32,000 nt of DNA. It comes from Clostridia bacterium. GTDB taxonomy: Bacteria > Bacillota > Clostridia > TANB77 > CAG-508. The stretch spans positions 22,480-54,479 of the forward strand of contig JAFXOY010000041.1 in NCBI GenBank assembly GCA_017528375.1. The letters are read 5' to 3'. Below, piece after piece: positions 11,001 through 30,000 of this stretch; within the stretch, counting starts at the first letter, position 1; every line of letters starts with the position of its first letter. The position numbers and the translations under genes were made by a program. Below the pieces are notes generated by a model. It saw nothing but the letters and a program-made list of their open reading frames with translations. It did no database searches and had not been told where the DNA came from.

Positions 11001-11012
11001 TTTTGTTCCTCC

Positions 11013-11130
11013 TTGCACAATTGGGGACGCGTCCCGACTGTGCAAAATGCACAGTCAGGGACACGTCAGCAATCTAACCCGTCCCTAGCTGTGCAAAATG
11101 CACAGCGGGGACGCGTCCCCAGTTGTGCAA
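11013..11130. repeat. GC-rich composite palindromic element (GGGAC-repeat family, locus B): two ~50-bp inverted arms around an 18-bp spacer
   Basis: Left arm 11013-11062: TTGCACAATTGGGGACGCGTCCCGACTGTGCAAAATGCACAGTCAGGGAC. The reverse complement of the right arm (11081-11130) is TTGCACAACTGGGGACGCGTCCCCGCTGTGCATTTTGCACAGCTAGGGAC. I count about 41 of 50 matching positions. Each arm contains the sub-palindromes GGGGACGCGTCCC(C) and CTGTGCAAAATGCACAG. Confidence 0.85.
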
Positions 11131-12816: not shown

Positions 12817-13043
12817 GAAAAAAATATGTGAAAATAATAAATGAATTTAATAAATTTTGTTAAAATTTTGTAACAAAACGATAAAACGTTGAAGCCCTAA
12901 GGAAAAACGCAAAAAACTGAAGATAATATAAATAAGATTTTCTAAAACTTTTATTTCCGTAAGTTTTTGGAAAAAGTGCAAAAAAATAAAATATTACATT
13001 TATATTAAATTTAGTAAAATGTGTATTTTCAAGGCTTTTTTTG

Positions 13044-13072
13044 TTGAAAAAACATATTATTTAAATTATAAT
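13044..13072 (+). promoter_or_regulatory. Candidate promoter of the T4SS-like operon
   Basis: TTGAAA (13044-13049), a 17-nt spacer, then TATAAT (13067-13072), about 37 nt upstream of ATG 13109. It lies at the end of a 358-bp AT-rich intergenic region. Confidence 0.55.
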
Positions 13073-13108
13073 ATAAGAAGATTGTATAAAGAATGTGAGG
13101 AGAAAATT

Positions 13109-13690
13109 ATGAGAGAAAAGAGATTAAGAAAAATTACTAAAACAATATTTGCTGTTGTAGCAATTTTAATTGCTTTCCAAGTAACAAGCACAAAAGTTTT
13201 TGCTGCAAATGCTAAAACAATTCAAAACGCAGAAAACACAACAGACAAAGCAATAGTAAGACTTGCAGACAACGAGCAAAATGAAGGACAATCAGAAAAG
13301 AAAGCACTAAAAAAATCTGAAAGAAAAGGCGTTGGAGATATTTTAAAAGCAGCAACAACATGGATAAACGGAGCTGAAAAAACTGAAAACACAGAAGTTG
13401 ATGATTTTGTAAACCAATTCGTAGGAATAGGACAATTACTTGTAATAGCAGGTGTTATCGTTATATTAATAACAATTGGAATCACAGGAATTAGATGGAT
13501 TACAGCTTCTCCAGACAAACAAGCTAAATTAAAAGAACAACTAATTGGTCTAGTAATTGCAACTGTTGTAATATTTGGTGCAGTTGGAATTTGGAACTTA
13601 GTAAGAGGAATTATGATGAAAGTTGAAGACGATTATTTAACAACAGGTAACTCAGAAACAATCATAGTTGCAGACAATCAAATTAAATAA
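13109..13690 (+). CDS. TrbC/VirB2-like pilin-type small membrane protein (signal peptide plus two C-terminal TM helices)
   Basis: I chose ATG 13109 (MREKRLRKITK...), with GAGGAG 6 nt upstream, over ORF-track 13019, which would include the promoter. A signal peptide ends ...STKVFA|ANAK. Next come a hydrophilic E/K-rich segment and a hairpin of two TM helices (IGQLLVIAGVIVILITIGITGI ... LIGLVIATVVIFGAVGIWNLV) joined by a short basic loop. It is the first gene of the T4SS-like operon. Confidence 0.6.
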   Translation: MREKRLRKITKTIFAVVAILIAFQVTSTKVFAANAKTIQNAENTTDKAIVRLADNEQNEGQSEKKALKKSERKGVGDILKAATTWINGAEKTENTEVDDFVNQFVGIGQLLVIAGVIVILITIGITGIRWITASPDKQAKLKEQLIGLVIATVVIFGAVGIWNLVRGIMMKVEDDYLTTGNSETIIVADNQIK

Positions 13691-13738: not shown

Positions 13739-14074
13739 ATGGCTACACATTACATCCCAAAAGACTTAAGAGGTGAAGGAAGAATATTATTAATATTCTC
13801 AACTAAGTCATTAATAACAACAGCAATATTTGGTGGTATTGGAGTTGTATTTTACTTAATATTCAGCGCTTTAGGATTAAAAATTGTTGGAGTAATTGTC
13901 TTAGCACTGTTAGCATTATTAGGGTATGCTTTTGGAACCTTCAAAATGCCAAAAATAACAGGACTTAGATTTACTAAAAATATTGAAGGAGATTCAATGG
14001 ATGAAATATTTTTAAGATATATAAAATTTAGATCAAACAAGAAGATTTACTCATACACAAAGGAGGATAAATAA
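13739..14074 (+). CDS. PrgI family / VirB3-like small membrane protein
   Basis: AAGGAGG lies 8 nt upstream. The N-terminus MATHYIPKDLRGEGRILLIFSTKSL is followed by two TM helices and a basic tail FLRYIKFRSNKKIYSY. This matches the PrgI-family pattern as I remember it. It sits just upstream of the VirB4 region, as in Gram-positive T4SSs. Confidence 0.75.
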   Translation: MATHYIPKDLRGEGRILLIFSTKSLITTAIFGGIGVVFYLIFSALGLKIVGVIVLALLALLGYAFGTFKMPKITGLRFTKNIEGDSMDEIFLRYIKFRSNKKIYSYTKEDK

Positions 14075-15358
14075 ATGGGAAACGGATTACAAGGTATAAT
14101 TTATTTTATAATTGCAATATGTGTTATTCTTGCCATAGCATTAGCAATAGTTCTAGCATATATCTGGTACAAAGATAATCGTAAAAAGCAAGAATTAAAT
14201 GATACACAAAAATCAGATAAAAATAAATCAAATTCACCTACAAAGCTACAAGGAATTGAATCAATGTCTAAGTTCTTAGCCTTTGATGATATTGTAGATA
14301 GCATGATTGTTAGAAAAAATAGAACTCAATATGTAATGGTAATTCAATGTAAAGGTGTTAACTTCGATTTATTAGGGGAAGAAGAAAAAATGGCTGTAGA
14401 AAGTGGATTTACTCAATTCTTAAATACATTAAGATTTCCAGTACAGTTATATGTTCAATCAAGAAGCTTAAACTTAAAAGATAGCATAGATAAATATCAA
14501 GCAAGAGTTAATGAAGTTAAAGACGAAATAGTAAAATTAGATAATCAAATAAAAAGAGAACAAGCAAATGGAAGATTAGACTTAGTAAGAAGATTACAAT
14601 TTGACAGAAGAAGAAAAATGAACATTTTAGAATATGGAGCTGATATTACAAACTATGTAGCAAGATTAAGTCAAAACAGAAATGTTTTACAACAAAATAC
14701 TTATGTGGCAGTTGCTTACTACACAAATGAATTCGGTGGACAAATTGCAAACTACTCAAAAGAAGAAATTGATAACATAGCGTTTTCTGAGTTATATACA
14801 AGAGCACAAACATTAATTAGAGCTTTATCTGCATCAGGAGTTACAGGTAAGGTTATGAATTCAGAAGAGTTAGCAGAACTTCTTTATGTTGCATATAACA
14901 GAGATGATTCTGAATTAATAAGTGTTAAAAAAGCAATCGAGTCTCAATATGATAGCTTATACCACACAGCTAAAGATGTATTAGAAAAACAAAAAGAAAT
15001 GATTGAAGAAAAAGTAGATAAAGAAGCAATTGATTTAACATCACAAAGCATTGCAAAAGCTGATAGAATTTTAAAATTAAGACAAGAAAACAAAGAAGAA
15101 ATTCGTAGAAGAGCAATGGCTTATGTTGAAAGATATAAAGGTGAAATGACTAGTGACCTTTATGAAGAAACAAAAAGACAAGTAGAAAAAGCAAAAATAG
15201 GTGAAGAACCAAGAAAAGAAACCAAAATTACTAAGCCAACTAAAGAAGTAGAAAGAAAAACAGTAGCTAAAAAGAGACCTACAGCAGTACAAGCAGAGTC
15301 AGAAATAAGAACAGAACAACCAAGAGTACGACGCAGAAGACCAACAGTAACGGAATAA
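14075..15358 (+). CDS. Bitopic membrane protein with a long charged/coiled-coil C-terminus; T4SS-associated, function unknown
   Basis: The ATG directly follows the upstream TAA, and the AGGAGG lies inside the upstream gene end. It has one N-terminal TM (IIYFIIAICVILAIALAIVLAYIW). It has no Walker A. The tail is K/E/R-rich and ends RTEQPRVRRRRPTVTE. Confidence 0.7.
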   Translation: MGNGLQGIIYFIIAICVILAIALAIVLAYIWYKDNRKKQELNDTQKSDKNKSNSPTKLQGIESMSKFLAFDDIVDSMIVRKNRTQYVMVIQCKGVNFDLLGEEEKMAVESGFTQFLNTLRFPVQLYVQSRSLNLKDSIDKYQARVNEVKDEIVKLDNQIKREQANGRLDLVRRLQFDRRRKMNILEYGADITNYVARLSQNRNVLQQNTYVAVAYYTNEFGGQIANYSKEEIDNIAFSELYTRAQTLIRALSASGVTGKVMNSEELAELLYVAYNRDDSELISVKKAIESQYDSLYHTAKDVLEKQKEMIEEKVDKEAIDLTSQSIAKADRILKLRQENKEEIRRRAMAYVERYKGEMTSDLYEETKRQVEKAKIGEEPRKETKITKPTKEVERKTVAKKRPTAVQAESEIRTEQPRVRRRRPTVTE

Positions 15359-15396: not shown

Positions 15397-17358
15397 ATGA
15401 AATTATTTAATTTAAAACAAAATACCAAAGAAATCGAGAAAAAAGTTGAAGAAGAGAAAAGTGTTTTGAAAAGAAACAGAAAAACTCTTAAAGATATAAT
15501 TTCACCAGCAGGTGTTGATGCAACACATACAAATCATTTGGAAATTGTTGCAAGTACAACAAAATATGCACGTAGTGTAATAATTTCCACAATGCCAAGA
15601 ATGTGTACTTTCCCAGAGTTTCTAAGAAGCATGTATACATTTGGAGATGCAAATATTTCAGTTTTTATTAAACCAATTACTGAAAATACATCCCAAACAG
15701 ACTTAAACAGAAGAATCAATGAAATTGAATCTGAAAGAATTGTAGCAGCAGAAAGAGGAAACATCAACAGGGAAAGAATTCTAGCCCAAAAAAGAATGGA
15801 AGCAGAAGAGTTAAGAGACTCAATTGCAGGTGGATTTAATAAATTATATGAATCTTCAGTAATATGTACATTATTTGCATATAACTTGGAAGATCTAGAT
15901 AAACAAACTGAGTTATTATCAACAGAAATGTCAAAAACATTAATAGGAATTAAACCAGCATGGGCAATGCAAGAAGATGCATTTAATTCAAATATGCCTT
16001 TTGTAGATAATAGAATAAACAAAGAGCATACATTTGACCGTAACTCAATGGCAACAGTATTCCCATTCTTTAATTCAGACATAGGACATGAGAACGGAAT
16101 TCCACTTGGATTTAATCGTCAAACAGGATTACCAATTCTTTATGATAACTTTAACAAAGAATTAAATAACTATAATATGGTTGTTTTCGGTAAATCTGGT
16201 GCTGGTAAATCAGTTGCAATTAAAACATTAACAGCTCGTTCATCAGTTCTTATGGGAATTGAAAGTTTAGCACTAGACGCCGAAGGTGAATACGGAGTTG
16301 TTGCTGAAGCACTAGGTGGAGTAAATGTTGTAATTAGTCCAAATTCAAACACAATTATAAATTTATTTGATATAGAGCCAGAACTTGTAAAAGATGAAAT
16401 TACTGGAAAAGAAAGAGCAATTTTAAATGTAGAAAATAAAGTTGAAGATGTTACTCAAGCACTGGTAACAATGGCAAGAGGAAGCACAAGAAGTTCAGAA
16501 GTAAATGAGCTTACAAAACAAATTATTGCTGAAACAGTAAAAGAAGAATATGAAGCATATCAAATTACAAGTGATGTAAATAGTATATATGTTAAGAAAA
16601 ATGAAAGAGTAATGGAAGACGATTACTTAGGAAGACAAAGAAAAGAAATGCCAACAATTGGTTCATGGTATAAACGTTTGATTAGAAAAGCAAAAGCAAA
16701 CGAAAATCCTGACTACAGATTCCATTACAGTTATTTAGCAAAAGTTATGAGACAATATGTAAGAGCTTTAGGTGGACAAATGGCATATTTCGATGGTCAA
16801 TCAACCTTCGAATTATTAGAAGATATTCCATTTATTAACTTAGATATATCTCAACTTGAAGAAAGATTTGCAAGACCACTTGCACAACAAATATTACTTT
16901 CTTGGGTATGGGAAAAATACGTAAAGAAAAATAGTGAAGATAAAGAAAAAGCAGCAAGAAAAAGGGTTCTAGTCGATGAAGCATGGATGCTTTTACCTTA
17001 CCCAGAAGCTGTAGATTTCTTAAACACAATGGCAAGACGTGCCAGAAAAAGAAATGTTTCTCTAGCAGTTATTTCACAAAAATTCCAAGACTTCTATGAG
17101 AGACCAGAAGTACAAGTAGTTTTAACATCATCAGATACAAAACTATTCTTAGCACAAGATAAATCAGAAATAGAATACATAAGAGAAGTATTTAAATTAA
17201 GTGAAGGAGAAGCAAACTTCTTAACAACATGTACAAGAGGTGAAGGTTTGTTAAAAGTAGGTGAAGATACGGCAATTATTTCAATAAATCCTACTAAAAA
17301 AGAATTTGAATTCATAGAAACAAACTTAAATGAATTAGCAAAAAGAAGACAGGAGTAA
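15397..17358 (+). CDS. virB4: VirB4-family T4SS ATPase (TraE/PrgJ/TrsE-like)
   Basis: Walker A is VVFGKSGAGKSVAIK (GKSGAGKS at nt 16189-16212). It is followed by LALDAEGEYGVVAEALGG...IINLFDIEP. Walker B is RVLVDEAWMLL (~16966-16998), and ARRARKRNVSLAVISQKFQDF follows. The N-terminal segment IISPAGVD...HLEI...YARSVIISTMPRMCTFPEFLRSMY...ISVFIKP fits the VirB4 N-domain pattern. Confidence 0.88.
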   Translation: MKLFNLKQNTKEIEKKVEEEKSVLKRNRKTLKDIISPAGVDATHTNHLEIVASTTKYARSVIISTMPRMCTFPEFLRSMYTFGDANISVFIKPITENTSQTDLNRRINEIESERIVAAERGNINRERILAQKRMEAEELRDSIAGGFNKLYESSVICTLFAYNLEDLDKQTELLSTEMSKTLIGIKPAWAMQEDAFNSNMPFVDNRINKEHTFDRNSMATVFPFFNSDIGHENGIPLGFNRQTGLPILYDNFNKELNNYNMVVFGKSGAGKSVAIKTLTARSSVLMGIESLALDAEGEYGVVAEALGGVNVVISPNSNTIINLFDIEPELVKDEITGKERAILNVENKVEDVTQALVTMARGSTRSSEVNELTKQIIAETVKEEYEAYQITSDVNSIYVKKNERVMEDDYLGRQRKEMPTIGSWYKRLIRKAKANENPDYRFHYSYLAKVMRQYVRALGGQMAYFDGQSTFELLEDIPFINLDISQLEERFARPLAQQILLSWVWEKYVKKNSEDKEKAARKRVLVDEAWMLLPYPEAVDFLNTMARRARKRNVSLAVISQKFQDFYERPEVQVVLTSSDTKLFLAQDKSEIEYIREVFKLSEGEANFLTTCTRGEGLLKVGEDTAIISINPTKKEFEFIETNLNELAKRRQE

Positions 17359-17362
17359 TTAA

Positions 17363-18511
17363 ATGAAGAAATTTATAACTATAACAGCAATTGTTATATT
17401 ATTACTTAATTTCATATCAATACGCTCGTATGCTGCAACAGACGAAAATGGTTTGTTCGATTACACTAAAGGGTTCGATTTATCTCCTCAGCAGTCTGGA
17501 GGGATAACGCTTGTTACAGATGAAGGACAAAAAGTAAGCTCTTCACTAAATGGAGCAACAAAGACAATTGGATTAGCGTTTAAAGCAATTGTGAATACAT
17601 TAACTGTATTTCCACATGCAATTAACCAAGTGCTAGACGTATTTGTTGAAGTTACAACAGAAGATGAAGTAAACCATTTTACCATATATGACACAGTAAT
17701 GGGACATTATGATTTGTTTGACATCGATTACCTAAACATACCAGACAAATTAACAGATGATTCAACACTTATAGAAGAAATAAAGTATTATGTAATTAGA
17801 GCATATAGAACAACAAGAAACTTAAGTATTGCAATAAGCTTATTTGTTTTAATATACATTGGAATAAGAATGGCAATATCAACTGTTGCAAGTGATAAGG
17901 CAAAATATAAGAACATGTTAGTACATTGGACAACTTCGCTAGTATTAGTTTTCCTTATACACTTTATAGTTATAATAATTTCGTTAGTGCTACAGGTGGG
18001 ACTTGGGATTGTAGAAAATATTGCAAAAGCATGGGAAGTAAGCAATTTAGAAGAACAGCTATTTAGTGGTTCAGTGTTATATACAAGTACATTATCTACT
18101 GGAATTGGAATAGCATCATTCTCATCAGCAGTAATAATTTGGGTATTAGCATATTATCAGGTAAAATTCTTTTTATATTACTTAAGAAGAACTTTGGAAG
18201 TAAACTTTTTAATAGTGGTTTCACCACTAGTTACAATTACATACTCAATTGACAAATCCGGAGACAACAAAGCACAAGCATTTGAACAATTTATGAAAAT
18301 GCTGATATCAAAATCAGTAATACAACTATTACATGCAATAGTATATGTTGTATTTATAGCAACAGCCGGTGTAATTGCAGTAAGACATCCACTATTAGCA
18401 ATACTATTCTTTGCAGCACTAGCAAGAGTAGAAAAGATAGCAACAAGAGTATTCTCAGTAGATGAACAAGGATTCCAAAAAGTAAAAGTACCATTTATAA
18501 AAGGAGCATAA
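17363..18511 (+). CDS. VirB6/TrbL-like polytopic membrane protein, paralog 1 (382 aa)
   Basis: It has a signal peptide (…ISIRSYA|ATDENG), multiple TM helices, and a position immediately after VirB4. It shares a ~225-aa core with 25096-27051 and with the middle of 20327-25078 (RNLSIAISLFVLIYIGIRMAISTVASDKAKYKNML...; FLIVVSPLVTITYSIDKSGDNKAQAF...). Confidence 0.6.
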   Translation: MKKFITITAIVILLLNFISIRSYAATDENGLFDYTKGFDLSPQQSGGITLVTDEGQKVSSSLNGATKTIGLAFKAIVNTLTVFPHAINQVLDVFVEVTTEDEVNHFTIYDTVMGHYDLFDIDYLNIPDKLTDDSTLIEEIKYYVIRAYRTTRNLSIAISLFVLIYIGIRMAISTVASDKAKYKNMLVHWTTSLVLVFLIHFIVIIISLVLQVGLGIVENIAKAWEVSNLEEQLFSGSVLYTSTLSTGIGIASFSSAVIIWVLAYYQVKFFLYYLRRTLEVNFLIVVSPLVTITYSIDKSGDNKAQAFEQFMKMLISKSVIQLLHAIVYVVFIATAGVIAVRHPLLAILFFAALARVEKIATRVFSVDEQGFQKVKVPFIKGA

Positions 18512-18679: not shown

Positions 18680-19801
18680 ATGATAATAAATGAAATAAAA
18701 AAACATAAAAAAATAATTATTATTTTAGTATCTATTTTATTATTATTTTTAATTACCATTATACTTATTAAAATAGATCAAAAGAAAAAATATGGAAAAT
18801 TTATAGAAGAAGAAACAGCCAGAGTAAAGCAATACACAGCACTTACAGATTTTCAATCAATACAGGAAGTAGCATTATATTTAGACTGTAAATTGGAAAA
18901 GCAAGAAAAATCGCAAAAAGAAAATGTTGACTATGATATTTACATGACTCTTCCGATTGATGTTGCAGACGGACATGCAAAACACAAAACATTTTTAGAA
19001 AAATTAATTCAATATTCTGCATATGCATTAAAATACAAAAACTTCATTATTATAGATAAATCAAAAAACATTAATATAGCTGTTGTATGTAATGAAAAAG
19101 AACAAGAAATAGAAACATACTATATTAATAATGTTGAAAACTACTTTACAACAAAACAAAATGAAGAAAACATTGATAGCTTTAAAACAACAAGTGAAAT
19201 TGAATTAAATGTTACATCAAATGAATTGCAACAAATAATAAGTTTAGATTGGCGATCAAGTAATTTACAAGTAGGAACAGCAGAATCAACTTTCAAAGGT
19301 TATGATATTTATTTTGATGAAGGATATCAAATAAAAAAAGTAGCAGGAAAAGTATTTAACATAGTATTCACTGATAAATATCAAAATAATGTAGTTAACA
19401 ATTTAAATGTAAATTCTACAATAGAAGAAATAAAAAATTCTTTAGGGAAACCTCAATTTGAAAGTGGAAATTTAATTGGATATAAATCAAAAGATTTCTA
19501 TGTATTTTTCTATAATAATCAAATTTCAATATACAGAGTTGATTATTATGACACTGAAAAATTTGCAGAAATAATAGATAAGTATAAAGAAAGCATAGAT
19601 ACAAAATCTTTTGTAGATGAAGTTAAAAGTAATTGGACAGATTATGATATTTCAGATTATGGAACAAACTACATAAAAATTCAATACACACTAAAGGGAA
19701 TAACAATAAAATATGATTCAACAGAAAAACAGGGAATAGTAGTATATAACAATTACAATGGTAAATTACTACGGAAATCTAACTTTAGAAGAAGTTGTTA
19801 A
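18680..19801 (+). CDS. Bitopic membrane-anchored protein (N-terminal TM, ~340-aa external domain), function unknown
   Basis: AAGGAG (18661-18666) lies upstream, and the nearer ATG 18667 runs into a stop after 8 codons. The TM is IIIILVSILLLFLITIILI. I recognise no motifs. The last ~13 codons (GKLLRKSNFRRSC, including a CGG codon) look out of frame; see the frameshift finding. Confidence 0.65.
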   Translation: MIINEIKKHKKIIIILVSILLLFLITIILIKIDQKKKYGKFIEEETARVKQYTALTDFQSIQEVALYLDCKLEKQEKSQKENVDYDIYMTLPIDVADGHAKHKTFLEKLIQYSAYALKYKNFIIIDKSKNINIAVVCNEKEQEIETYYINNVENYFTTKQNEENIDSFKTTSEIELNVTSNELQQIISLDWRSSNLQVGTAESTFKGYDIYFDEGYQIKKVAGKVFNIVFTDKYQNNVVNNLNVNSTIEEIKNSLGKPQFESGNLIGYKSKDFYVFFYNNQISIYRVDYYDTEKFAEIIDKYKESIDTKSFVDEVKSNWTDYDISDYGTNYIKIQYTLKGITIKYDSTEKQGIVVYNNYNGKLLRKSNFRRSC

Positions 19802-20234
19802 TACAAAACAAACATTACCAAATAATATATTTATTGAAAATGAAGATTTAGTATTTGAAACTGAAAAATCTAGAGTAAATACTTTAGAAGATACAACTAA
19901 CAATGGAAATTATCCATCAACAGTAATATTAAACACAAGCAAAAAGTTTAAAGTAGCAAAACAGTTATTGCAAGGAAGTGACAACATGTACCAAATAAGA
20001 TTTATATCAATAAATAATGAACTTCCAAATACAGAATTAAGGGAAGTAATAAGCAGAGGAATTTGGTATGATGATTACAATTTTATATTTGCAGTAAAAG
20101 AAAGAGGAATATTTATTTATAATGTTCAAACACAAAGTTATAGAACTTTAAAAACAGGTAATGGAGAATTCATGATACACAATATAGAAAATAATAAATT
20201 ATATTATGATAATGATTCATTAGAAATCCAGTAA
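19758..20234 (+). CDS. Hypothetical protein, or the C-terminal part of the preceding gene after a +1 frame change
   Basis: It overlaps the upstream ORF by 44 nt and has no RBS before ATG 19758. Its frame is open only from 19743. Codon usage looks genuine from the first codons onward (MVNYYGNLTLEEVVNTKQ...). Confidence 0.5.
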   Translation: MVNYYGNLTLEEVVNTKQTLPNNIFIENEDLVFETEKSRVNTLEDTTNNGNYPSTVILNTSKKFKVAKQLLQGSDNMYQIRFISINNELPNTELREVISRGIWYDDYNFIFAVKERGIFIYNVQTQSYRTLKTGNGEFMIHNIENNKLYYDNDSLEIQ

Positions 20235-20326
20235 AACAATAACGAAATGAAAACAGTTTAATATCAGTTGCAGACTGTAAAAAATCGATGTGATTCGAAA
20301 ATAAAAAAAGAAGGGAGGGCTGCAAA

Positions 20327-23300
20327 TTGAAAAAACTATTCAAGAAAATCTTAATAATTTGGGCAATAATTTGCATGCTTCTTCCAACAGTATTTACAGG
20401 AGTTGCGTGTGCAGCAGATATTAATTATATAAACACAGAAAGGGCAGGAAATTTTGCAAGTAACTTTGCTATCAACTTCTATGAGAATTGGAGTAGCATT
20501 TCACTTATAGAAGAAGATGGTGGAAAAGGAAATTCAAATGCATATATTAACGGAAATCACAATTTTGTTTGGCCACTTACAAAAGGTTCATACACAATAA
20601 CAAGTGAATTCGGACCAAGATCTTTAGATAATCATAAAGGTATGGATTTTGGAGCACCAAAAGGAACTCCAGTATATTCAGCAAGTTCTGGTATAGTTAA
20701 AGAAACGTTTACAACATGTGAACATAACTATGGTAAAGATTATAACTGTGGATGTGGAAGTGGCTATGGAAATAACATTAAGATAGATACAGGAGACGGC
20801 TTTTTAGTTATATATGGACATCTTACAGATGTACTTGTAAATGTTGGAGATACAATTAAGCAAGGTCAGCAAATAGGTACAGTAGGAAGCACAGGATGGT
20901 CTACAGGAGATCACTTACATTTCGAATTATCAACAAATAATATTGAAGGTTTAGATGTTGCAGATTATATTGATAGAATTGGAAATGGCGGAATTATTTT
21001 TGGATATAAATATAGTGTAAACCCAAGAAAATTCATAAGTGATAGTGCTACAATTAGCAGTTCTGATGCTGGAAAATCATCAAGCAGGGTAAATGCGACA
21101 AGCGTATTAGCAGCTGGTCAACAAATATATGATAATATTTTATTAGGAAATACAAATATTGCGTATGTAGCATATCCAGGAAGAGATTCAGAACAAATAG
21201 TAAATGATAAAAGTTATTCAGAACAACATGGTATGGACTGTTCAACATTTGTTTCAGCAGCTTTATGGCTAGCTGGATATGACGATTTTAAAAGTACTAA
21301 AAATACATATATGCTTGAAGATGGATGCTTAAGTGGTGAATATGTAAGAAAATACGGATTTGGAGTATATAAAACTGATAGAGCTGGAAGAGTATTTCAA
21401 TTAGATGAAAATGGAACAGCACATGAATTAGCAGGAGAATTTGCAGATAGGTTTATTCAACCAGGAGATATAATAGTAGTAAACTGGCCAGATAGAAGAA
21501 ATGGACATACAAACATAGTAAAAGAATTAACACCAGGAAACTCAAATAAATACTTAGCACTAGACTGCGGTAATTCAAGTAATTGGCAAAACCAAGCAAA
21601 TTATAACGCGAACGGTGGAGGTACAAACTTTGATATATGGACTTCAGTTAATTGGGATGCATATTATGGTGGAACAAGTCAAGCATTCTTAATTAGAGCA
21701 GGTGGAACAGGAAGAAGTACTTACAATTCTTCATCAAAATTAATAACAAGAGGACAAATAAAAACAGAATATGATGCAAACATCAATCCAATGGATGAAG
21801 TTGATCCAAAAACACAAGAAAATTACAAATTCAACAATATATCTTGGATAGGATTTGCATATAGAAATTCATTGTTTAATAATAATGTTGATAACATTTT
21901 ATCTGGATCAGGAAATAGCATTACAATTAATACATCAAACTTTAATGATAAAACACAAATACCAGGAATCAAAGATGTAGCAGATGATTCAAAATATTTA
22001 GATATAGCAACATTAATAAACGAAGGAAAAGTTAAACCAGGAGATATATTATATTCTGAATATACATTTTTAGATGAAGATGGAAACGAAAAAAATGTAA
22101 AAGAGTATTTATTATATGTAGGTGGTACAGCAGTAATTTATGCATCAGAAGACCCAAGAGTTGCAGCAAGTGGAGCATTAAAATATGAATATGTTGAAAG
22201 TTATTTAAAAAGAATAAGACAAAGAATTTTAGCTGCACATGAAGATGAAGAAGACTTTGAAATGCCTAAATATGGAATTACTCAAATATATAGAATTAAG
22301 GATGAAGTAGCAAGTAAAATTCCAGAAACAGATACAAATTTATTTTTTAATGGTAAAGGATATTATTCAAAAACAACATATGAAGGTTTACCTTCTAAAA
22401 TAGCACTAGCACAAGTAAAAATAGACATGGTAAAATGGTTATTTGATGCACTAGAAAGAGTCCTTGAATTCTTAATAAACTTATTTATTTACATATTAAG
22501 AATGGTAATTTTAGGTTGGGCAAACTTAGTTGAAAACCTAATTCAACACATTGTTCTAGGAATAAGCGGAGATAACAATGATGCATCAATCTGGAACACA
22601 GTATTTGGTACAAGTGCAACATCTGCATCAGGCGAAAGAATAACAGTTGAATCAATCTTCTATAACCAAATTCCAATTCTAGATGCAAATTTCTTCAACT
22701 TAGAAACAGCTGGAGGACATGAAATATTTGGTGAAGGTGCAGAAGGTGAATATGGAATTGTTTACAGCTTAAGAAACAACCTAAGAAATATTTATGTAGT
22801 AGTAAGAAATGTTTCAATAGCATTAATGTTATTTTTATTAATATTCTATGGAGTAAGAATAGCAATAACAACATCAAGTCAAAAGAAAGCAGAATACAAA
22901 AAATTATTAACATCATGGTTGTTTGCATTTGGTGTAGTATTGTTTATACACATATTCATGTTCTTAGTATTTGAAGTTAACGATACATTAGTTAGTACAT
23001 GTAAAAACTGGGAAAATGAAGTAGCTAGAAAGAATTTAAGTGATATAATACAAATTACAAATTCACAACAAGAATTAAACTTATATGATGCAGTAAGAAC
23101 AAAAGCCTATGCATTTGACTGGCATGAAGGTGTTCCAGCAACAGTAATATACATATATTTAATATACTTAATGATTAGATTTTTAATTATCTATCTAAAG
23201 AGATATGTAACAATCTATATTTTAGCTTTATCTGGCTCATTTATGGGAGTTAAATACGCAATAGATAGATTAATGGGTAAGAAAACAAAAACTTTAAATA

Positions 23301-25078
23301 AATGGGCAAAAGATTTTGCATTCAATGTTTTACTACAAACAGTACATGCATTTATTTATCTATTATTTATAGGTGTTGCAATTTCAGTTTCAGGAAAAAG
23401 CTTAGGTGGAGCATTAATTGCAGGTATAATTCTTAACTTTATGCTTAAAGCGGATAAGATTATTATTAATATATTCGGATTAGATAAAGCTGGTTCACTA
23501 GCTACAGTTAATGAACCAGAATCATTTGGTAAAACAATTCGTGAATTTATGCCAATTTATACAATTTCAAGAGGAGCTCTTGGAATATTTAGTGGAGACT
23601 CAAAATTATATAAGAGTGTAAGATATTTCTTTACTGATGCAGATAATTTTAAAGATGCTAAAAAAGAAGTTGAAAAACAAAATTATCAACTTATGGGTTG
23701 GTTAGCAAGAAAAATAGATAGAACCCCAATTAGAGAATTATCAAGATTTCATAACCTATACACAAGGTTAGGTAATGACTTAGATAATGACACAAACAAA
23801 AAAATACTTGCAGCAATTAAAGATGCAAGAAAGAAAACAAATGCAAGATATTTAAGAAAATTAAATATGGCAAAGGATTTAACTTTAGGAACAGCAGGAA
23901 AAATAGCAAGCTTAGGTGTTGCAATAGCAAATCCAGCTGCTGGTGTGGGATTATTTTTACAATCAAACAAAATGATTAAAAAATATAAAACTACAAATAA
24001 AACAAAGTTAAAAGCACAAAAATATGGTGGCTCAACTGCTAAAGCTAGAATAGATTTACAAAGGGCAAACAATACATATAAAGTTGTTTTGGATAGACAT
24101 ACAAATAATGAATTAGCATATCAAGAAGAATATGAAAGACTACATGATATGTATAATAGAGCAACAAGTGATGCAGAAAGAACAAGAATTAATAGTGAAG
24201 CTCAAAGATTACTTGCTGAAAGGGAACAACAAAGATCTATTGAATTACACGAATTAGCTGAAGCAACAGATAAGCAACGTGAAGCTAAAAATGATTACAA
24301 CAAGGCTAGATTTGAAAACAACATGTTTATGAAAACAGTTGGAAAAGTTACAGGATTAGAAACAATTAATAATATAGCTCAAAACGAAGCTGTAAATGCT
24401 GAAAAAGCTGTTAAAGATGATGAAAAAGCAGAGAAAAAAGCAAAAGACTTAGATAAAATTGCAAAACTTGAAAAAGAATTAAGAGATGCTACAACAAACT
24501 TAAAGACTTTACAAAAAGAATATGCAGAAAAGAAAAATCTTTCAGAAGAAGATACAGATAAATACATTAAAGACAGCTTTAATAAGGTATATAAGCAATC
24601 TAAAGAAATTAATATTAGGTCTTCATATATTGCACAAGCTGTAAGCGAATATTTATCTAGAAAAAGTATTTCAAAGGTAACCGGGGATAATGTTGATGAT
24701 GTATTAGATAATCTAAAAGAAGTAATGGCAAGAAACAACAAAACATTCGATGTTACTGATGAATTGAAAAATAATGTAAAAGAAGCACTAGAAAGCAAAA
24801 TGCTAGATGATAGAAAAGGACTTGGATTAGACAAGAAAGATGCTATAGTAACAATAAGACAAGCTTTAGTAAAAGGAAAAGATCATTTACGTAGAGATAA
24901 CAATAATCAACATAAAGATACAGATGAGTTAGAGAAATTAAAACAACGAATTGAACAACTTGAAGATTTAAGATTACAAAAAATCAATCAAATTAATACA
25001 TATAATGAGGTTGGAAAAATTAAATATAAATCTTCATTAGTAAGTGTAAATAAAATTATTAAAGAGACAAATAAATAA
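20327..25078 (+). CDS. 1583-aa fusion protein: signal peptide, M23 (LytM) peptidase, NlpC/P60-like cysteine peptidase, VirB6-like polytopic core (paralog 2), long charged/coiled-coil tail
   Basis: A TTG start is preceded by AAGGGAGGG 7 nt upstream. The signal peptide ends ...TGVACA|ADIN. M23 motifs are HKGMD (H103/D107), YGHL and GDHLHFE (aa 82-205, nt ~20570-20941). The NlpC/P60-like region has HGMDCSTFVSAALWLAGY (Cys305 codon at 21239-21241) and PGDIIVVNWPDRRNGHTNIV. The TM core at aa ~700-1055 is homologous to the 382-aa and 651-aa proteins. The tail at aa ~1100-1583 is K/E/D-rich and helical-looking. Confidence 0.8.
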   Translation: MKKLFKKILIIWAIICMLLPTVFTGVACAADINYINTERAGNFASNFAINFYENWSSISLIEEDGGKGNSNAYINGNHNFVWPLTKGSYTITSEFGPRSLDNHKGMDFGAPKGTPVYSASSGIVKETFTTCEHNYGKDYNCGCGSGYGNNIKIDTGDGFLVIYGHLTDVLVNVGDTIKQGQQIGTVGSTGWSTGDHLHFELSTNNIEGLDVADYIDRIGNGGIIFGYKYSVNPRKFISDSATISSSDAGKSSSRVNATSVLAAGQQIYDNILLGNTNIAYVAYPGRDSEQIVNDKSYSEQHGMDCSTFVSAALWLAGYDDFKSTKNTYMLEDGCLSGEYVRKYGFGVYKTDRAGRVFQLDENGTAHELAGEFADRFIQPGDIIVVNWPDRRNGHTNIVKELTPGNSNKYLALDCGNSSNWQNQANYNANGGGTNFDIWTSVNWDAYYGGTSQAFLIRAGGTGRSTYNSSSKLITRGQIKTEYDANINPMDEVDPKTQENYKFNNISWIGFAYRNSLFNNNVDNILSGSGNSITINTSNFNDKTQIPGIKDVADDSKYLDIATLINEGKVKPGDILYSEYTFLDEDGNEKNVKEYLLYVGGTAVIYASEDPRVAASGALKYEYVESYLKRIRQRILAAHEDEEDFEMPKYGITQIYRIKDEVASKIPETDTNLFFNGKGYYSKTTYEGLPSKIALAQVKIDMVKWLFDALERVLEFLINLFIYILRMVILGWANLVENLIQHIVLGISGDNNDASIWNTVFGTSATSASGERITVESIFYNQIPILDANFFNLETAGGHEIFGEGAEGEYGIVYSLRNNLRNIYVVVRNVSIALMLFLLIFYGVRIAITTSSQKKAEYKKLLTSWLFAFGVVLFIHIFMFLVFEVNDTLVSTCKNWENEVARKNLSDIIQITNSQQELNLYDAVRTKAYAFDWHEGVPATVIYIYLIYLMIRFLIIYLKRYVTIYILALSGSFMGVKYAIDRLMGKKTKTLNKWAKDFAFNVLLQTVHAFIYLLFIGVAISVSGKSLGGALIAGIILNFMLKADKIIINIFGLDKAGSLATVNEPESFGKTIREFMPIYTISRGALGIFSGDSKLYKSVRYFFTDADNFKDAKKEVEKQNYQLMGWLARKIDRTPIRELSRFHNLYTRLGNDLDNDTNKKILAAIKDARKKTNARYLRKLNMAKDLTLGTAGKIASLGVAIANPAAGVGLFLQSNKMIKKYKTTNKTKLKAQKYGGSTAKARIDLQRANNTYKVVLDRHTNNELAYQEEYERLHDMYNRATSDAERTRINSEAQRLLAEREQQRSIELHELAEATDKQREAKNDYNKARFENNMFMKTVGKVTGLETINNIAQNEAVNAEKAVKDDEKAEKKAKDLDKIAKLEKELRDATTNLKTLQKEYAEKKNLSEEDTDKYIKDSFNKVYKQSKEINIRSSYIAQAVSEYLSRKSISKVTGDNVDDVLDNLKEVMARNNKTFDVTDELKNNVKEALESKMLDDRKGLGLDKKDAIVTIRQALVKGKDHLRRDNNNQHKDTDELEKLKQRIEQLEDLRLQKINQINTYNEVGKIKYKSSLVSVNKIIKETNK

Positions 25079-25095: not shown

Positions 25096-27051
25096 ATGAA
25101 AACAAGTAAACATATTAAAAGAATAAGTTTAATTTTATTAATTAGCATGATTGCTTTAGCTTTGTTTAAAGTTTCTTATGGTGCAGATACTGTTTCCAAA
25201 GGCTTAACAGGTGCTGGATATTCAATTGTTGCATTTTTAACATTAGGAATACAGGAATTTGCATTATTAATATTCTTAGCGTTAAGAACATTAACAGTTG
25301 TAATTACTGGGGTGGCTAGTGAAGGTTTTGGTGGAACAATAGGAGATGTAGTATTTAATAGATGTGGACTTACATCAGCAAACTTCTTTCCAGAAGTTTG
25401 GATTGGAGAAAATCCACAATATGGCCAAACATTATCAACAGTTGTTTCAAGTATTAGAACTTATTATAATGTAATTAGAAACTTATCAATAGCAATATTA
25501 TTATTTATATTAATATATGTTGGTATAAGAATGGCAATATCAACAACTGCTTCAGATGAAGCAAAATACAAAAAGATGTTAAAAGATTGGGCAGTAAGTT
25601 TAGTCTTGGTGTTTATGCTACATTTTATTATGATAATTACATTTTTCATAAATAATTCATTAGTATACGCATTATCAGGATTAGATTCTGGATCAGGAAA
25701 TGCACAGTGGCTTGAGCTTGCAGGCTCAGCCGCAATACCAGGAATTGGATGGCCAGACTTAATTATATATGGAGCATTTACAATAGGTACAATTGCATTT
25801 GTATTAATGTATGTAAAACGTACAATAGTATTAGGATTTTTAATTGTAATTTCACCATTAATTACAATTACTTATTCAATAGATAAAATGGGTGATGGTA
25901 AATCACAAGCATTAAATGCGTGGTTAAAAGAATTCATTTTCACTGTAATTGTTCAACCATTCCATTGTATAATTTATTTAGTATTTTATGATTCAATTAT
26001 GAAATCAGTGACTGGTTTGGGAGAATTAGATTTAGGGAAAATGATATTTGCAGTAGGTAGTGCATTGTTTATGCTAAAAGCAGAAGGTATAATTAAGAAA
26101 ATATTTGGTGTACAACCAAGTAGCATTGGGGATGCCTTAGGAACAGGTGCAATGGCATTAACAATGGCAACATCAATGTTTAAAGGTTCAGGAAAGAAAC
26201 TTAATAAAAATAAAGGTGAAATGAAGAGAATGGATCAAGGCAAAGATGTTAAAACAACTAAAAATAAAGGTGTTCCAACAGATGTTACAGGAGCTAATCA
26301 AGCAGCTCAAAGAAACGCAAATGCAAATGGCGGACAAAACGCAGGAGCAAATGCAGGAAATGGTAATGCCAATATGCCTGGAGATATTTCAAATGCAATA
26401 GATAATGCTAGAACTGGTGAAAACCAAGCACAAAAACAACCTACATGGCTTGGAAGAAAAATTAGAAAAGCTGTAAGTAGACATGGTGGATGGACAGGAG
26501 CTGTTGCAGATTATGCTAAATCTAGTGCTCGTAAGGCAGCAGCAACAGCAGGTTTTATAGCTGGTGCTACTGTTGGTGACTTCAAAACAGCGGCTTCAAC
26601 TGCTACAGCTGCAAGTGGGGTTGCTAGAAATATAGCAGATGATCTAGAATACAAACATGCAGAAAAAATTCTTGAAGACAATCAAAAAGTTTATGCAGAT
26701 AGTTATGAAGACTTTGCTGATGAATATAGAGCAAGAATTAATGCAGAAGCAACTGATGAAGAAATCAGAGCAGAAATTGGAAGAATTATTGAAACAAATG
26801 GTTTAGGACTTGAAGATTGGCAAAGAGATATTTATGATAAAGCAGATCAATTATCAACAGGTGCTGAAATTATGGGATATTCAGATGGCGCAGATTATGT
26901 ACTTGACACAAGTAGATTGGCTGCTGAAGGTGTAGTTGGACATACAGATAAATATGTTCCAAAAAGAAATAGAAGAAATGATAATAGTAATAATAACAAT
27001 AATAGATTTACTGATAACAACGATAGCAATGACAATAGCTCAAATTCATAA
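25096..27051 (+). CDS. VirB6/TrbL-like polytopic membrane protein, paralog 3 (651 aa) with a low-complexity C-terminal extension
   Basis: It has a signal peptide or N-terminal TM (…LFKVSYG|ADTV). The core RNLSIAILLFILIYVGIRMAISTTASDEAKYKKML... and FLIVISPLITITYSIDKMGDGKSQAL... closely matches 17363-18511. The C-terminal ~290 aa is hydrophilic, with N/A/G-rich runs (NANANGGQNAGANAGNGNAN; NDNSNNNNNRFTDNNDSNDNSSNS). Confidence 0.7.
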   Translation: MKTSKHIKRISLILLISMIALALFKVSYGADTVSKGLTGAGYSIVAFLTLGIQEFALLIFLALRTLTVVITGVASEGFGGTIGDVVFNRCGLTSANFFPEVWIGENPQYGQTLSTVVSSIRTYYNVIRNLSIAILLFILIYVGIRMAISTTASDEAKYKKMLKDWAVSLVLVFMLHFIMIITFFINNSLVYALSGLDSGSGNAQWLELAGSAAIPGIGWPDLIIYGAFTIGTIAFVLMYVKRTIVLGFLIVISPLITITYSIDKMGDGKSQALNAWLKEFIFTVIVQPFHCIIYLVFYDSIMKSVTGLGELDLGKMIFAVGSALFMLKAEGIIKKIFGVQPSSIGDALGTGAMALTMATSMFKGSGKKLNKNKGEMKRMDQGKDVKTTKNKGVPTDVTGANQAAQRNANANGGQNAGANAGNGNANMPGDISNAIDNARTGENQAQKQPTWLGRKIRKAVSRHGGWTGAVADYAKSSARKAAATAGFIAGATVGDFKTAASTATAASGVARNIADDLEYKHAEKILEDNQKVYADSYEDFADEYRARINAEATDEEIRAEIGRIIETNGLGLEDWQRDIYDKADQLSTGAEIMGYSDGADYVLDTSRLAAEGVVGHTDKYVPKRNRRNDNSNNNNNRFTDNNDSNDNSSNS

Positions 27052-27082: not shown

Positions 27083-30000
27083 ATGAATGATGAAGAAGAT
27101 GATGTACTTCTTAACACCATGGATGATGAACAAAATGCGAAAAAACAACGTAAACAAGAAAAGCAAGAAGGTCAAAACACATTATTTGGAAGAGTAAAAC
27201 AAAATGCCAAAGAACAGGCAAAAGAAAAAACAAAAGAAACAGCCAAAAGAGAATATCAAAAGTATAAAAAGGCAAAAAAAGTTGCTAAAAAAGCTGGAAA
27301 AGTAGCCGGCGGTGCAGCCAAAGTTGCAAATCCTGTTGGAGCAACAGTATTTCTAATTATATTAATAATTATAATAATTATAGGTATCATTTCATTTATA
27401 ACATCAATGCCTGGTCTTGTTCAACAAGAAATAATGAAAAAGGTCATGGGAGCTAAAGATTTGCTATCATACACACTTGGAGGAAGTGACTATTACCTAA
27501 CAGATTTAGCAACATCAGAAGAAGGAGAAAAATATAGAAAAGATGTTTTAAAATACTTAAACGATATGGGACTTGACCCTGCTGGTTTCGGATTTGCACC
27601 ATTTTTCCGTGTGAATTCTGATGGTGAAGTAGAATATGATACATCAATTGCAATAGATGATGTTCCAGGAGTACATGAATTATTTAGTGCTTTGGTAGCA
27701 AACTGGAAAGCACAAAAGAGAATTGAAAATCAAGATTTAATTTTTAAATATCTTGTATCAAATGAAAGAACATATTTAGTTGATGATGACTCAAAAGCAA
27801 CAAAAGTAATTGAAAAACTAGGAGTTACACCTATTTATGAAAGCTTATTTGGTTCTACTAAGCTAAAAGGTATGATAAAAATGAGACTAGAAGGTGGCTT
27901 GGGAAATGACCAATGGCATACATTTACAGTTGACAGAGAAAATCAACAATTAATTATCGCAACAGCTAATTTAAGCGAAACAAAGTTTAAATTAAAAGAA
28001 GGCGAAGACGGATTCTTTAAAAAAGCATTAAAATCAGGTTTAGTAGGTGGAGTTATAGGTTCATTTATAGGTGATTCTGATGTAGCAGTTGATGTTCCAA
28101 TTCAAATGGCAACTTATGATTTAAGTTCATATGCTGGTAGATATGGAACTCCACTAGAAATGCTTTTAGCACTACACTTAGCAACAATGACATCAGATTT
28201 AACAGATGAAATGGTTACTAATGAAAATTTGCAAACTGAGTTAAGCTTAAAAGTGAAATTAGATTCATATGACACAGATTATGAAGTCTCATATAACGGA
28301 AAAACATTACCTGCCAAAATAGGTGATTATGGATTTGCTGAACCAGACATGCATGAGTATATTTATTATGATGATGATAATGTCGCTCGTGTAACTGCAG
28401 GTTCAGAAAGGGCTGGAATTACAATAAGAAGCTTACGTAATTGGGCAAACAAAATAACACAACACAAAAACTTAAATTTAGCAGCAGACCAACAAACAGT
28501 AAGAGCAATTGAAGCTAAAAATGCACTTTTAGGAAATGGAGAATTCTATATTGACTATAGAATGCTAGAAAATATAGGTGACCTTGATGTGCGTGATGCA
28601 ATGGGGTTAAGAAAAGGTACAAGTAATGATGCAATTTATATAGGTCCTGCTGAGGGGATTTCAAATAATGGAAATATAATACTTCATGGTTTACCATATT
28701 ACATAAATGGTAATGAAAAAGAAATTCGAAATGACGAATATACACGAAATGGAATTACATATATATTAAGTCAATTAGACGCGTGCTTAGTTTACGAAGA
28801 ATTAGAATTAATTTCAAATTATGAATTTAATGAAGACAATTTATTATTAGCGCAACAATGGATGGATTTCATTTCTGATGAATCAAATTTAACAGATGAA
28901 AGAATCCATGAAGAGTTAGTTAATTTATCAAAAAATGTTACAAATTATTTTGATATAATTGAACATAAAGAAGAAAAAATGCAAAATGTAATCGACAGTT
29001 ATTTAGGAGTACATTTAACTCCAGATGATTTACAAGCAATTATAAATAGTGCAAAAGACTTACCAGGAGAATATGAATTTGCAATGCCAAGAATTGAGCA
29101 TGTAATCAAGCACTGGTATAAAGATGTCATATTTGAAAATAAGAATATAGATGGAGTTTATGATTCATCAAGTGAAGCCATTCGTGCACCTATTTCAGAT
29201 ATTGAAACAACAAATGGAGATAAAATACAAATCACGGCAATATTAACAGATGGAAAAGCTTATAGCCAATCAGGACAACCATATGTTGTTAAAGGGGATG
29301 TTGTTACACTTGACGGAGAAGTTGTTGAAGATTCAGGTGTTGAAAATTTAACATTTTCTGGAGGATATAAAGTAGGTGATGGATATAGAACAACCAAAAA
29401 ATTATTTACTCAAGGTCAATACTATATCTTTGACGGTTCAAGAGAAACATCTCAATCAATTTACTATGCAAAAGAATTGGAAAAATTAAAACCAAATTCT
29501 AATAATGAATTTGCAATTGTACATGTTCAAAACGGAAGAATATCAATATTAAACTCTGCTGGCGTAGGCGGAAATCCATTAGAAATAATTGGAGATTCTT
29601 ATAGTGCGGGACAATGGAATACAAGTACTCAATTTGTTGGTGATAAAAGAATTAAGGCTAATTTAGGTTCAACAGTAATAAATGATGAAAATGGAAATTG
29701 GTCAGTATTCTTAGCAAAGGCTTATGATTCAGGGGCAAATATTTATTATGTTAAAGCAAATGCTGATTTAAAATATTTATCACCTGCAGATTATACTTAT
29801 GAAGAAAGTAAAAAATCAGTTGAAAAGATAAATTCTTTACTAGAAGCAATGGGTGTTGTAACAATAAGAAAACCAATAAGTTTTGACAACACAACTGCAA
29901 ATGGTGAAATTACAACATTAACGGCATTTGAAATTCTTGAAGGAATGCACACAGAAGCTGCAGAAGATGTATATAAAGATTTAAAAGAAATGTTAATAGA

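Follow-up and report, generated by a model that had tools for sequence, protein, structure and literature searches.

A type IV secretion system (T4SS) at work in a Gram-positive cell has to cross a thick wall and to confine wall cutting to the site of its channel, and current models envisage a separate VirB1-like hydrolase that is recruited by VirB8 and VirB6 partners. The locus considered here raises the question of whether hydrolase and membrane platform may instead be one molecule. It lies in a 32,000-nucleotide stretch of DNA from a Clostridia bacterium (assembly GCA_017528375.1, contig JAFXOY010000041.1, positions 22,480 to 54,479 of the forward strand; GC content, 30.7%), referred to in its entirety as the window, and consists of a gene at 20327..25078 on the + strand whose product had been interpreted from the letters alone, in what is here called the sequence-only reading, as wall hydrolase domains fused to a VirB6-like membrane protein. 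The present analysis confirmed that one polypeptide unites an M23 module, a Cys-His hydrolase-like module, a degenerate NlpC/P60 domain, a polytopic membrane part and a long charged tail. On balance, we consider it probable that this protein serves as a composite subunit in a chromosomal monoderm (MPF_FATA-like) T4SS-type machine, with the roles of a VirB1-like hydrolase and of an 'extended VirB6' held in one chain.

Integrity of the fusion gene

The gene comprises an uninterrupted open reading frame (ORF) that opens with a TTG start codon and encodes 1583 amino acids, and a ribosome-binding site, GAAGGGAGGG (20310..20319, +), could be read directly from the DNA 7 nucleotides 5' of the TTG. 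The single intact chain of the sequence-only reading was thereby confirmed, and all of the motifs it had quoted were located in the translated protein, hereafter the query: HKGMD at residues 103-107, GDHLHFE at 194-200, GMDCSTFVSAALWLAGY at 302-318, GHTNIV at 393-398 and KPGDILYSEY...EYLLYVGGTAVIYASE at 570-608.

A mis-assembled or frameshift-made fusion was considered and ruled out, because residue-for-residue the same protein is encoded in independent assemblies (contigs of ERZ27256869, there on a 305-kb contig, ERZ28019130, ERZ28654182 and Logan SRR31077520), and because some 40 homologues of 1240-1704 amino acids align with 46-100% of the query, their identities being 35-83%, and those of full length (40-83% identity) retain the domain architecture. 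The fusion, for which the sequence-only reading had entertained an assembly error, is accordingly genuine. A homologue 75% identical to the query carries in NCBI only the name 'peptidoglycan DD-metalloendopeptidase family protein', and a tblastn search of PLSDB plasmids with residues 476-1075 gave zero matches.

The N-terminal region and its predicted hydrolase modules

As judged from hydropathy and direct reading, residues 1-29 (20327..20413, +) form a predicted Sec-type signal peptide, with KK..KK in the n-region, a hydrophobic core and ACA|A as a cleavage-type motif, and the N-terminal 690 residues are predicted to be exposed on the outer side of the membrane after Sec export and cleavage of that signal. 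The motif ERAGN..F.INF..NWS (residues 35-57; 20429..20497, +), recognised by its invariant columns in a 29-sequence alignment, is followed by a Peptidase_M23 (LytM-type metalloendopeptidase) module at residues 77-220 (20555..20986, +). Pfam PF01551 matched residues 102-205 at E 3.6e-27 and 94.8 bits against a cut-off of 28.7, and the assignment was concordant in NCBIfam and PHROGs searches. The zinc-ligand and catalytic residues that define LytM are an HxxxD motif, an HxH motif and a third histidine; H103, D107, H165, H196 and H198 of the query are invariant in all 24 M23-bearing homologues. With a Pfam score far above threshold and five invariant catalytic residues, the claim of an intact M23 domain was upheld: the active site is complete, and peptidoglycan endopeptidase activity is predicted from it.

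The second module (residues 255-470; 21089..21736, +) is a Cys-His-Asp hydrolase-like domain of the NlpC/P60 clan, Amidase_6-like in character and marked by C305, H394 and D413, which are invariant in 10 of 10 aligned carriers of the domain, with C305 and H394 kept in an eleventh. The sequence-only reading had taken it for a first NlpC/P60-like domain, and this stands in so far as the Cys and His are in place and the clan relative Amidase_6 gives a borderline match, but not as regards the NLPC_P60 profile itself, which returned nothing against the query at E <= 1. The isolated segment scored 22.7 bits (E 1.2e-4) against Pfam Amidase_6, for which the cut-off is 23.2 bits, and two homologues exceeded that cut-off (P0002, 23.4 bits; P0033, 25.9 bits), weak CHAP and NLPC_P60 matches being recorded besides.

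An AlphaFold2 model of residues 240-700 (mean pLDDT, 79.5), which spans two domains, was compared with known structures by Foldseek. The top match in the PDB was 8tw1, the phage 2972 lysin (prob 0.85, E 0.095), and that in the BFVD viral library was Q56S80, likewise the phage 2972 lysin (prob 0.97, E 0.0085); the catalytic domain of this Streptococcus phage protein is that of an NlpC/P60-superfamily endolysin (PMC10980517). No match reached E < 0.001 and the aligned part may be either of the two modelled domains, so that the likeness of the model to this lysin is suggestive, not decisive.

The inactivated NlpC/P60 domain and the exchange of cassettes

The membrane-proximal domain, at residues 476-690 (21752..22396, +), is a catalytically dead NlpC/P60 domain. 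An hhalign comparison with ectodomains from active relatives (98.5% probability, E 3e-15) placed N504 at the position of the catalytic Cys and E593 at that of the catalytic His; both residues are gone throughout the subfamily of the query, and one homologue matched NLPC_P60 within the same region. The second NlpC/P60 remnant discerned in the sequence-only reading, which was said to lack the His, is therefore real, and its degeneration goes beyond what was claimed, the catalytic Cys having been lost too.

Active counterparts were found. One such relative, P0188, matches NLPC_P60 at E 2.6e-10, a consensus of 45 ectodomains retains Y..dC...pGDil.....Hv..Y.Gn, and active-type NlpC/P60-core fusions occupy the synteny position of the query gene. 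In relatives, the motif ERAGN..F.INF..NWS opens the NlpC/P60 ectodomain and directly precedes the rest of the fold; in the query, inserted modules part this motif from the remainder of the domain.

A table of 105 proteins related catalytic state to module content: none of the 41 with Cys and His intact carried an extra hydrolase module, and M23 and/or the Cys-His domain was present in 44 of the 64 in which Cys/His had been lost, while one further protein (P0029) bore a classical DCSGF...H NlpC/P60 domain as its module instead. The modules always lie between the N-terminal motif and a strand, KTEYD, where the rest of the old domain begins, and the intervening gap measures 4-23 residues with no module, ~190 with M23, ~230 with the Cys-His domain and ~410 with both; in one protein the two modules stand in swapped order. 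The simplest reading of these comparisons is that the family descends from a protein in which an active NlpC/P60 domain was already joined to core and tail, and that in the clade of the query the resident domain would have died but been kept, with new lytic cassettes (M23, the Cys-His domain or a classical NlpC/P60) inserted at one site.

A word-indexed protein search with a profile of the membrane core returned 18 proteins, and an exhaustive HMMER search with that profile revealed a large family, comprising 4213 clusters (50% identity) at E <= 1e-3 and 2536 at E <= 1e-30. Of the best 137 new representatives, roughly one half bear an ectodomain of 200-330 residues of canonical NlpC/P60 type, and in roughly as many the core begins near residue 55, an arrangement resembling the third of the core paralogues described below. 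Because the core family is of this size and includes positional orthologues with an active NlpC/P60 domain on the same core, the fusion is, as far as such comparisons tell, old and common in the lineage, to which the M23 and Cys-His modules were added later as inserted cassettes.

The junction of the dead domain with the first membrane helix bears a motif, NGKGYY..Y.G(I/L)P (residues 675-688), which is invariant in aligned homologues. As a possible processing or docking site, it would accord with a fusion that is only a precursor, cut at this junction to give a free wall hydrolase and a separate extended-VirB6 protein, and a poor fit of the helix at residues 711-735 to a charge-based topology points in the same direction. 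Against this, neither a protease site nor an autoproteolytic domain could be discerned, and the fusion has been retained across very divergent relatives, a persistence of linkage that is easier to explain if the tether matters. We regard such a precursor as highly improbable, and prefer a composite subunit that stays in one piece.

The membrane core and its tail

The polytopic membrane core (residues 700-1060; 22424..23506, +) was delimited by hydropathy, an AlphaFold2 model, Foldseek and T4SS_pilin matches. Hydropathy and the model together located hydrophobic helices at about residues 711-735, 823-850, 862-889, 935-956, (960-980), 997-1022 and 1028-1047, equivalent to 5-7 spans within residues 711-1047. 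When the model (pLDDT 73, pTM 0.69) was compared with the PDB by Foldseek, R388 TrwI/VirB6 structures were the sole matches above prob 0.5 (ranks 1, 3 and 7; prob 0.82, 0.82 and 0.54), aligned over 266-283 columns at 9-15% identity. A profile search of PDB sequences with the core gave nothing meaningful. By modelled fold and by context the core would be VirB6-like, membership of that family not being proven.

Pfam T4SS_pilin (PF18895) matched residues 819-877 of the query, which constitute the hairpin of the second and third transmembrane helices, and it matched 21 of the 24 core family members (best E 3.6e-8), one relative scoring above the gathering threshold (26.9 bits versus 26.6). In addition, hhalign aligned a helix-loop-helix transmembrane motif of the core with the pilin encoded in the same cluster, and weak matches to the Mbov_0395 pilin-like family were obtained. 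These data speak for a core that is an enlarged pilin-family platform, or 'pseudopilin', nucleating or anchoring a VirB2-like pilus whose path the hydrolases would clear. However, the pilin-like part amounts to ~60 of the 360 core residues, 3-5 further helices being left over, the hhalign probability against the pilin was just 8%, and Foldseek aligned 266-283 columns of the model with TrwI/VirB6. A pilin-derived platform is thus improbable as a rival to the VirB6-like core, and the two readings are in any event compatible, VirB6 being the pilin-docking platform of R388.

The recurring NCBIfam families on the core, all sub-threshold, were conjugation transmembrane proteins of pLS20 and of Mycoplasma integrative and conjugative elements (ICEs). 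The identification of NCBIfam pLS20_p028 as the VirB6 protein of pLS20 was not confirmed, the gene numbering of the relevant paper being different, and the link was left unused.

The same polytopic core occurs in three paralogous copies per cluster (17363-18511, 22424-23506 and 25096-27051), with the pilin-like hairpin in each. The first paralogue (17363..18511, +; 382 amino acids) has neither ectodomain nor tail and was related to the query by BLASTP at 26% identity (E 2e-20), and the second (25096..27051, +; 651 amino acids; 29% identity, E 2e-35) combines the core with a different tail. The three copies suggest a hetero-oligomeric platform.

The conserved basic C-terminal tail (residues 1061-1583; 23507..25075, +) was defined by charge analysis and ends in the conserved motif INTYNEVGKIKYK. 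The sequence-only reading of a K/E-rich tail of ~480 residues was correct as to a long, charged segment that reaches the C-terminus, but the length is 523 residues, of which 35% are charged (net +23) and three are prolines. A coiled-coil check on the tail came out negative, a crude heptad-register count finding no window with at least 7/8 hydrophobic a/d positions and hence, by that crude test, no canonical coiled coil. Searches of Pfam, NCBIfam and the PDB (the last by phmmer) gave no match to the tail. Because a hidden Markov model (HMM) of the tail still matches distant family members, this region is a conserved part of the protein and not junk.

Family-averaged net charges were -6.5 for the loop at residues 736-822, +2.2 for that at 851-861, -2.3 for that at 890-934, +6 for the segment at 957-996 and +24 for the proximal tail at 1076-1245. 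By the positive-inside rule, the tail is probably cytoplasmic under both a 5-span and a 7-span model, and the loop of the pilin-like hairpin is likewise predicted to be cytoplasmic.

The surrounding gene cluster

Inspection of the neighbouring genes confirmed that the fusion gene stands inside a T4SS gene cluster, its neighbours including a pilin, PrgI, a TraC-like ORF and VirB4, with the PrgI and VirB4 genes 3-6.6 kb upstream. The VirB2-like pilin (T4SS_pilin/TrbC; 13019..13690, +) matched PF18895 at E 1.1e-6 and 29 bits (cut-off, 26.6), and the VirB3-like PrgI (13739..14074, +) matched PF12666 at 30 bits (cut-off, 27). There follow a separate ORF of 427 amino acids (14075..15358, +), a TraC-like homologue of the N-terminal part of VirB4 (PF26593, and a weak N-terminal match to NCBIfam VirB4_plasma), and a VirB4-type ATPase of 653 amino acids (15397..17358, +; P-loop_TraG at E 1.9e-15, AAA_10, DUF87). 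Related loci with the cluster retain this division of VirB4 into two ORFs (14075-15358 and 15397-17358), which recalls the TrsD + VirB4 pair of Patescibacteria. A prophage or tape-measure origin of the fusion was rejected, the M23 module alone matching phage families and the neighbours being T4SS genes.

A scan of related loci, restricted to one genome per species, yielded 53, all from metagenome-assembled genomes (MAGs) of uncultured gut Clostridia (human, rabbit, ruminant and mouse); one related genome is a closed 1.8-Mb chromosome. The full gene order is present in ~35 of the 53, and the position of the fusion gene is fixed. The pilin genes 5' of PrgI form arrays of one to four copies (related loci L013-L056). 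A conserved partner gene directly upstream of the fusion gene (18680..20234, +) was recognised by synteny and has no family match; here it consists of two ORFs in different frames (18680-19801, 373 amino acids; 19758-20234, 158 amino acids) with a 44-nucleotide overlap, and in most related loci it is a single ORF of ~500 amino acids, the same split recurring in L005. A gene disrupted by a frameshift, a programmed frameshift or a true division into two genes may lie behind the split. In several loci (L014, L021, L034, L037, L039 and others) a second pair of partner gene and hydrolase-core fusion follows the o196 gene, and one cluster can therefore hold two fusion proteins.

Further downstream, a 1388-amino-acid protein (27083-31249) is conserved in the cluster and has no assigned family, its N-terminus being weakly like the CD1108 mobile-element family (E 0.0014), and it is followed by small ORFs and then by housekeeping genes (ACPS, an AI-2E transporter and a G5+3D protein). 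Upstream of the cluster lies the gene of a predicted surface protein of 3030 amino acids (210-9302) with eight Listeria-Bacteroides repeats plus Big_2/Big_12, and a divergently oriented ABC-F gene (9420-11045) separates it from the cluster. The system may use this surface protein as an adhesin, or the two may be unrelated.

Pfam scans of ORFs in the 32-kb window and in the 10 kb that lie downstream of it revealed no coupling protein, relaxase or integrase. Searches by phmmer of 55 related loci with PcfC and PcfG of pCF10 were likewise negative, as were searches of related loci with PrgH, PrgK, PrgL and PrgI, although the screen was insensitive, its PrgJ/VirB4 control matching 9 ORFs only. A 'conjugation channel' is consequently not established, the system being chromosomal and a coupling protein and relaxase being absent from its surroundings.

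The setting of the cluster also bears on whose wall would be cut. Chromosomal T4SSs with PF18895 pilin arrays, PrgI, TrsD (the homologue of the VirB4 N-terminus), VirB4 and no relaxase are described for Patescibacteria in PMC12102498, as are peptidase and lysozyme genes adjoining virB4. A similar non-conjugative T4SS might direct the lytic modules at other cells, in contact-dependent attack, attachment or DNA uptake, and cassette content would then track the wall chemistry of the target. Several observations lend this some weight: the cluster is chromosomal and set among housekeeping genes, with no type IV coupling protein, relaxase or integrase within 42 kb, its gene set matches that of the Patescibacteria type, the shuffling of hydrolases at one site resembles that of polymorphic effectors, the hosts are low in GC (one having a closed genome of 1.8 Mb), and a giant adhesin-like protein is encoded just upstream. 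It has to be set against them that the enzymes are covalently bound to a membrane domain of the producing cell, and that an ectodomain of ~690 residues would hardly pass the producer's own wall unless cleaved off; moreover, a coupling protein or relaxase may sit elsewhere in the genome, and the pCF10-based screen lacked sensitivity. Enzymes aimed at foreign walls are rather unlikely, and we prefer a subunit that cuts the producer's own wall.

A broader and more speculative proposal, which we also rate as unlikely, is that the cluster represents a vertically inherited, non-conjugative T4SS of Patescibacteria type in small-genome gut Clostridia, the fusion serving either to breach the wall of a partner or prey or to build a pilus conduit through the wall of the producer. 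If that were true, cassette swapping would record adaptation to differing peptidoglycan chemistries.

Proposed mode of action and significance

In the composite subunit that we favour, the tethered M23 and Cys-His enzymes would open the thick peptidoglycan only as far from the membrane complex as the tether allows, and the dead NlpC/P60 domain would probably act as a peptidoglycan-binding or scaffold element, a role comparable to that proposed in other systems for inactive VirB1 homologues as adhesins (PMC12857230). The core, perhaps as a hetero-oligomer with its two paralogues, would form a VirB6-like platform beside PrgI and VirB4, and the basic tail, if cytoplasmic, might contact the ATPase or the substrate.

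A number of results weigh against this proposal. For the core, TrbL gave no match to the query at E <= 1, hhalign of the core with pCF10 PrgH returned a probability of 0.5%, no VirB6, TrbL or PrgH similarity was apparent at the level of sequence or profile, the best sequence-family match is to a pilin family rather than to VirB6, and the fold match to TrwI/VirB6 is weak (E 0.4-1, TM score 0.29-0.44). The VirB6-like core of the sequence-only reading was accordingly sustained in part, with its polytopic nature, T4SS context and weak structural likeness on one side and, on the other, a T4SS_pilin hairpin in place of TrbL or PrgH similarity. The hydrophobic helix at residues 711-735 misfits the charge-based topology and the span count ranges from 5 to 7. 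As regards the ectodomain, the Cys-His domain of the query falls just under the Pfam Amidase_6 threshold and a profile search of the PDB with it found no sequence relative, and the association between module content and catalytic state derives largely from one clade, to which most dead-domain proteins belong, and therefore represents few independent events. Lastly, neither a coupling protein nor a relaxase was found within 42 kb.

The fusion bears on how a Gram-positive T4SS traverses the wall and restricts its cutting to the channel site. That such a covalent fusion occurs in nature provides direct evolutionary evidence of a hydrolase that works while physically joined to the membrane platform. 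The tether has been preserved across many species while the catalytic modules were replaced, and the fusion offers a ready-made system in which to study the coupling of hydrolase and platform. The dead NlpC/P60 domain and the exchange of cassettes at one site together constitute a clear case of enzyme turnover within a machine subunit. The surrounding cluster suggests, in addition, that the type of T4SS without a relaxase, until now discussed for Patescibacteria, occurs also in abundant gut Clostridia.

Comparison with known systems

Those Gram-positive systems that have been characterised encode the VirB1-like hydrolase and the VirB6-like protein as two distinct polypeptides (PMC12857230, PMC5770547), and reviews and primary papers describe the hydrolases PrgK, TraG, TcpG, CwlT and CstB1 as each separate from the VirB6-like protein. 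The sequence-only reading had stated that known systems keep the two apart, with which these reviews agree, and had suggested that the architecture might be undescribed; full-text literature searches for a VirB1-VirB6 or hydrolase-VirB6 fusion yielded none.

All known Gram-positive VirB1 homologues are, according to the same kinds of source, membrane-anchored with at least one enzymatic domain outside. PrgK (pCF10), TraG (pIP501), TcpG (pCW3) and CwlT (ICEBs1) resemble the query in being wall hydrolases of several domains whose genes stand beside VirB4 in a T4SS cluster, and in being membrane-held with external enzymatic domains, and PrgK carries a LytM (M23-type) domain together with other lytic domains (PMC12857230). 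These proteins have a single N-terminal transmembrane anchor, whereas the query has a C-terminal polytopic core followed by a 520-residue tail, and unlike them it contains neither SLT nor muramidase, its set being M23, Amidase_6-like and dead NlpC/P60. pCF10 PrgK gave no phmmer match to any ORF of the window or of the related loci in the insensitive screen.

Gram-positive VirB6 proteins are identified operationally, as the membrane protein of the cluster with 4 to 6 helices, and MPF_FA representatives are 'extended' to 700-900 amino acids by added regions (PMC12857230); the product of pLS20 gene 49, for example, has 906 amino acids and 5 N-terminal transmembrane helices (PMC8557374). The core-plus-long-tail layout of the query fits that of such 'extended VirB6' proteins by analogy (PMC12857230, PMC8557374). 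TcpH (pCW3), ConG (ICEBs1) and pLS20 gene 49 share with it a polytopic block of 4-7 helices, a long hydrophilic C-terminus and a location near VirB3/VirB4, TcpH and ConG being likened by description only and PrgH lacking sequence similarity. None of the extended VirB6 proteins is reported to have extracellular hydrolase domains, and the query family differs from them further in its three paralogues per cluster and its pilin-like hairpin. R388 TrwI/VirB6 (PDB 7o3v, 8rt9 and 8rtd), which provided the best structural matches to the predicted core, has no ectodomain enzymes, no long tail and no profile match to that core.

The likeness to the Patescibacteria T4SS concerns gene set and setting, in which the cluster (11423-32000 plus the 10 kb downstream) is closely alike (PMC12102498). 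The host here, in contrast, is a gut Clostridium MAG, and the likeness is drawn from the gene set and not from VirB4 phylogeny; no hydrolase-VirB6 fusion was found in the searched passages of that paper. Phage tape-measure and tail proteins with M23 or lytic domains, the former represented among the M23 matches, similarly place a wall-degrading domain inside a protein of a trans-envelope conduit, but beyond M23 they are unrelated to the query, being virion proteins that work from outside. Set beside all of these systems, the parts of the query are of known kinds, and the novelty resides in their covalent union, the conservation of a dead domain among them and the exchange of cassettes at one site.

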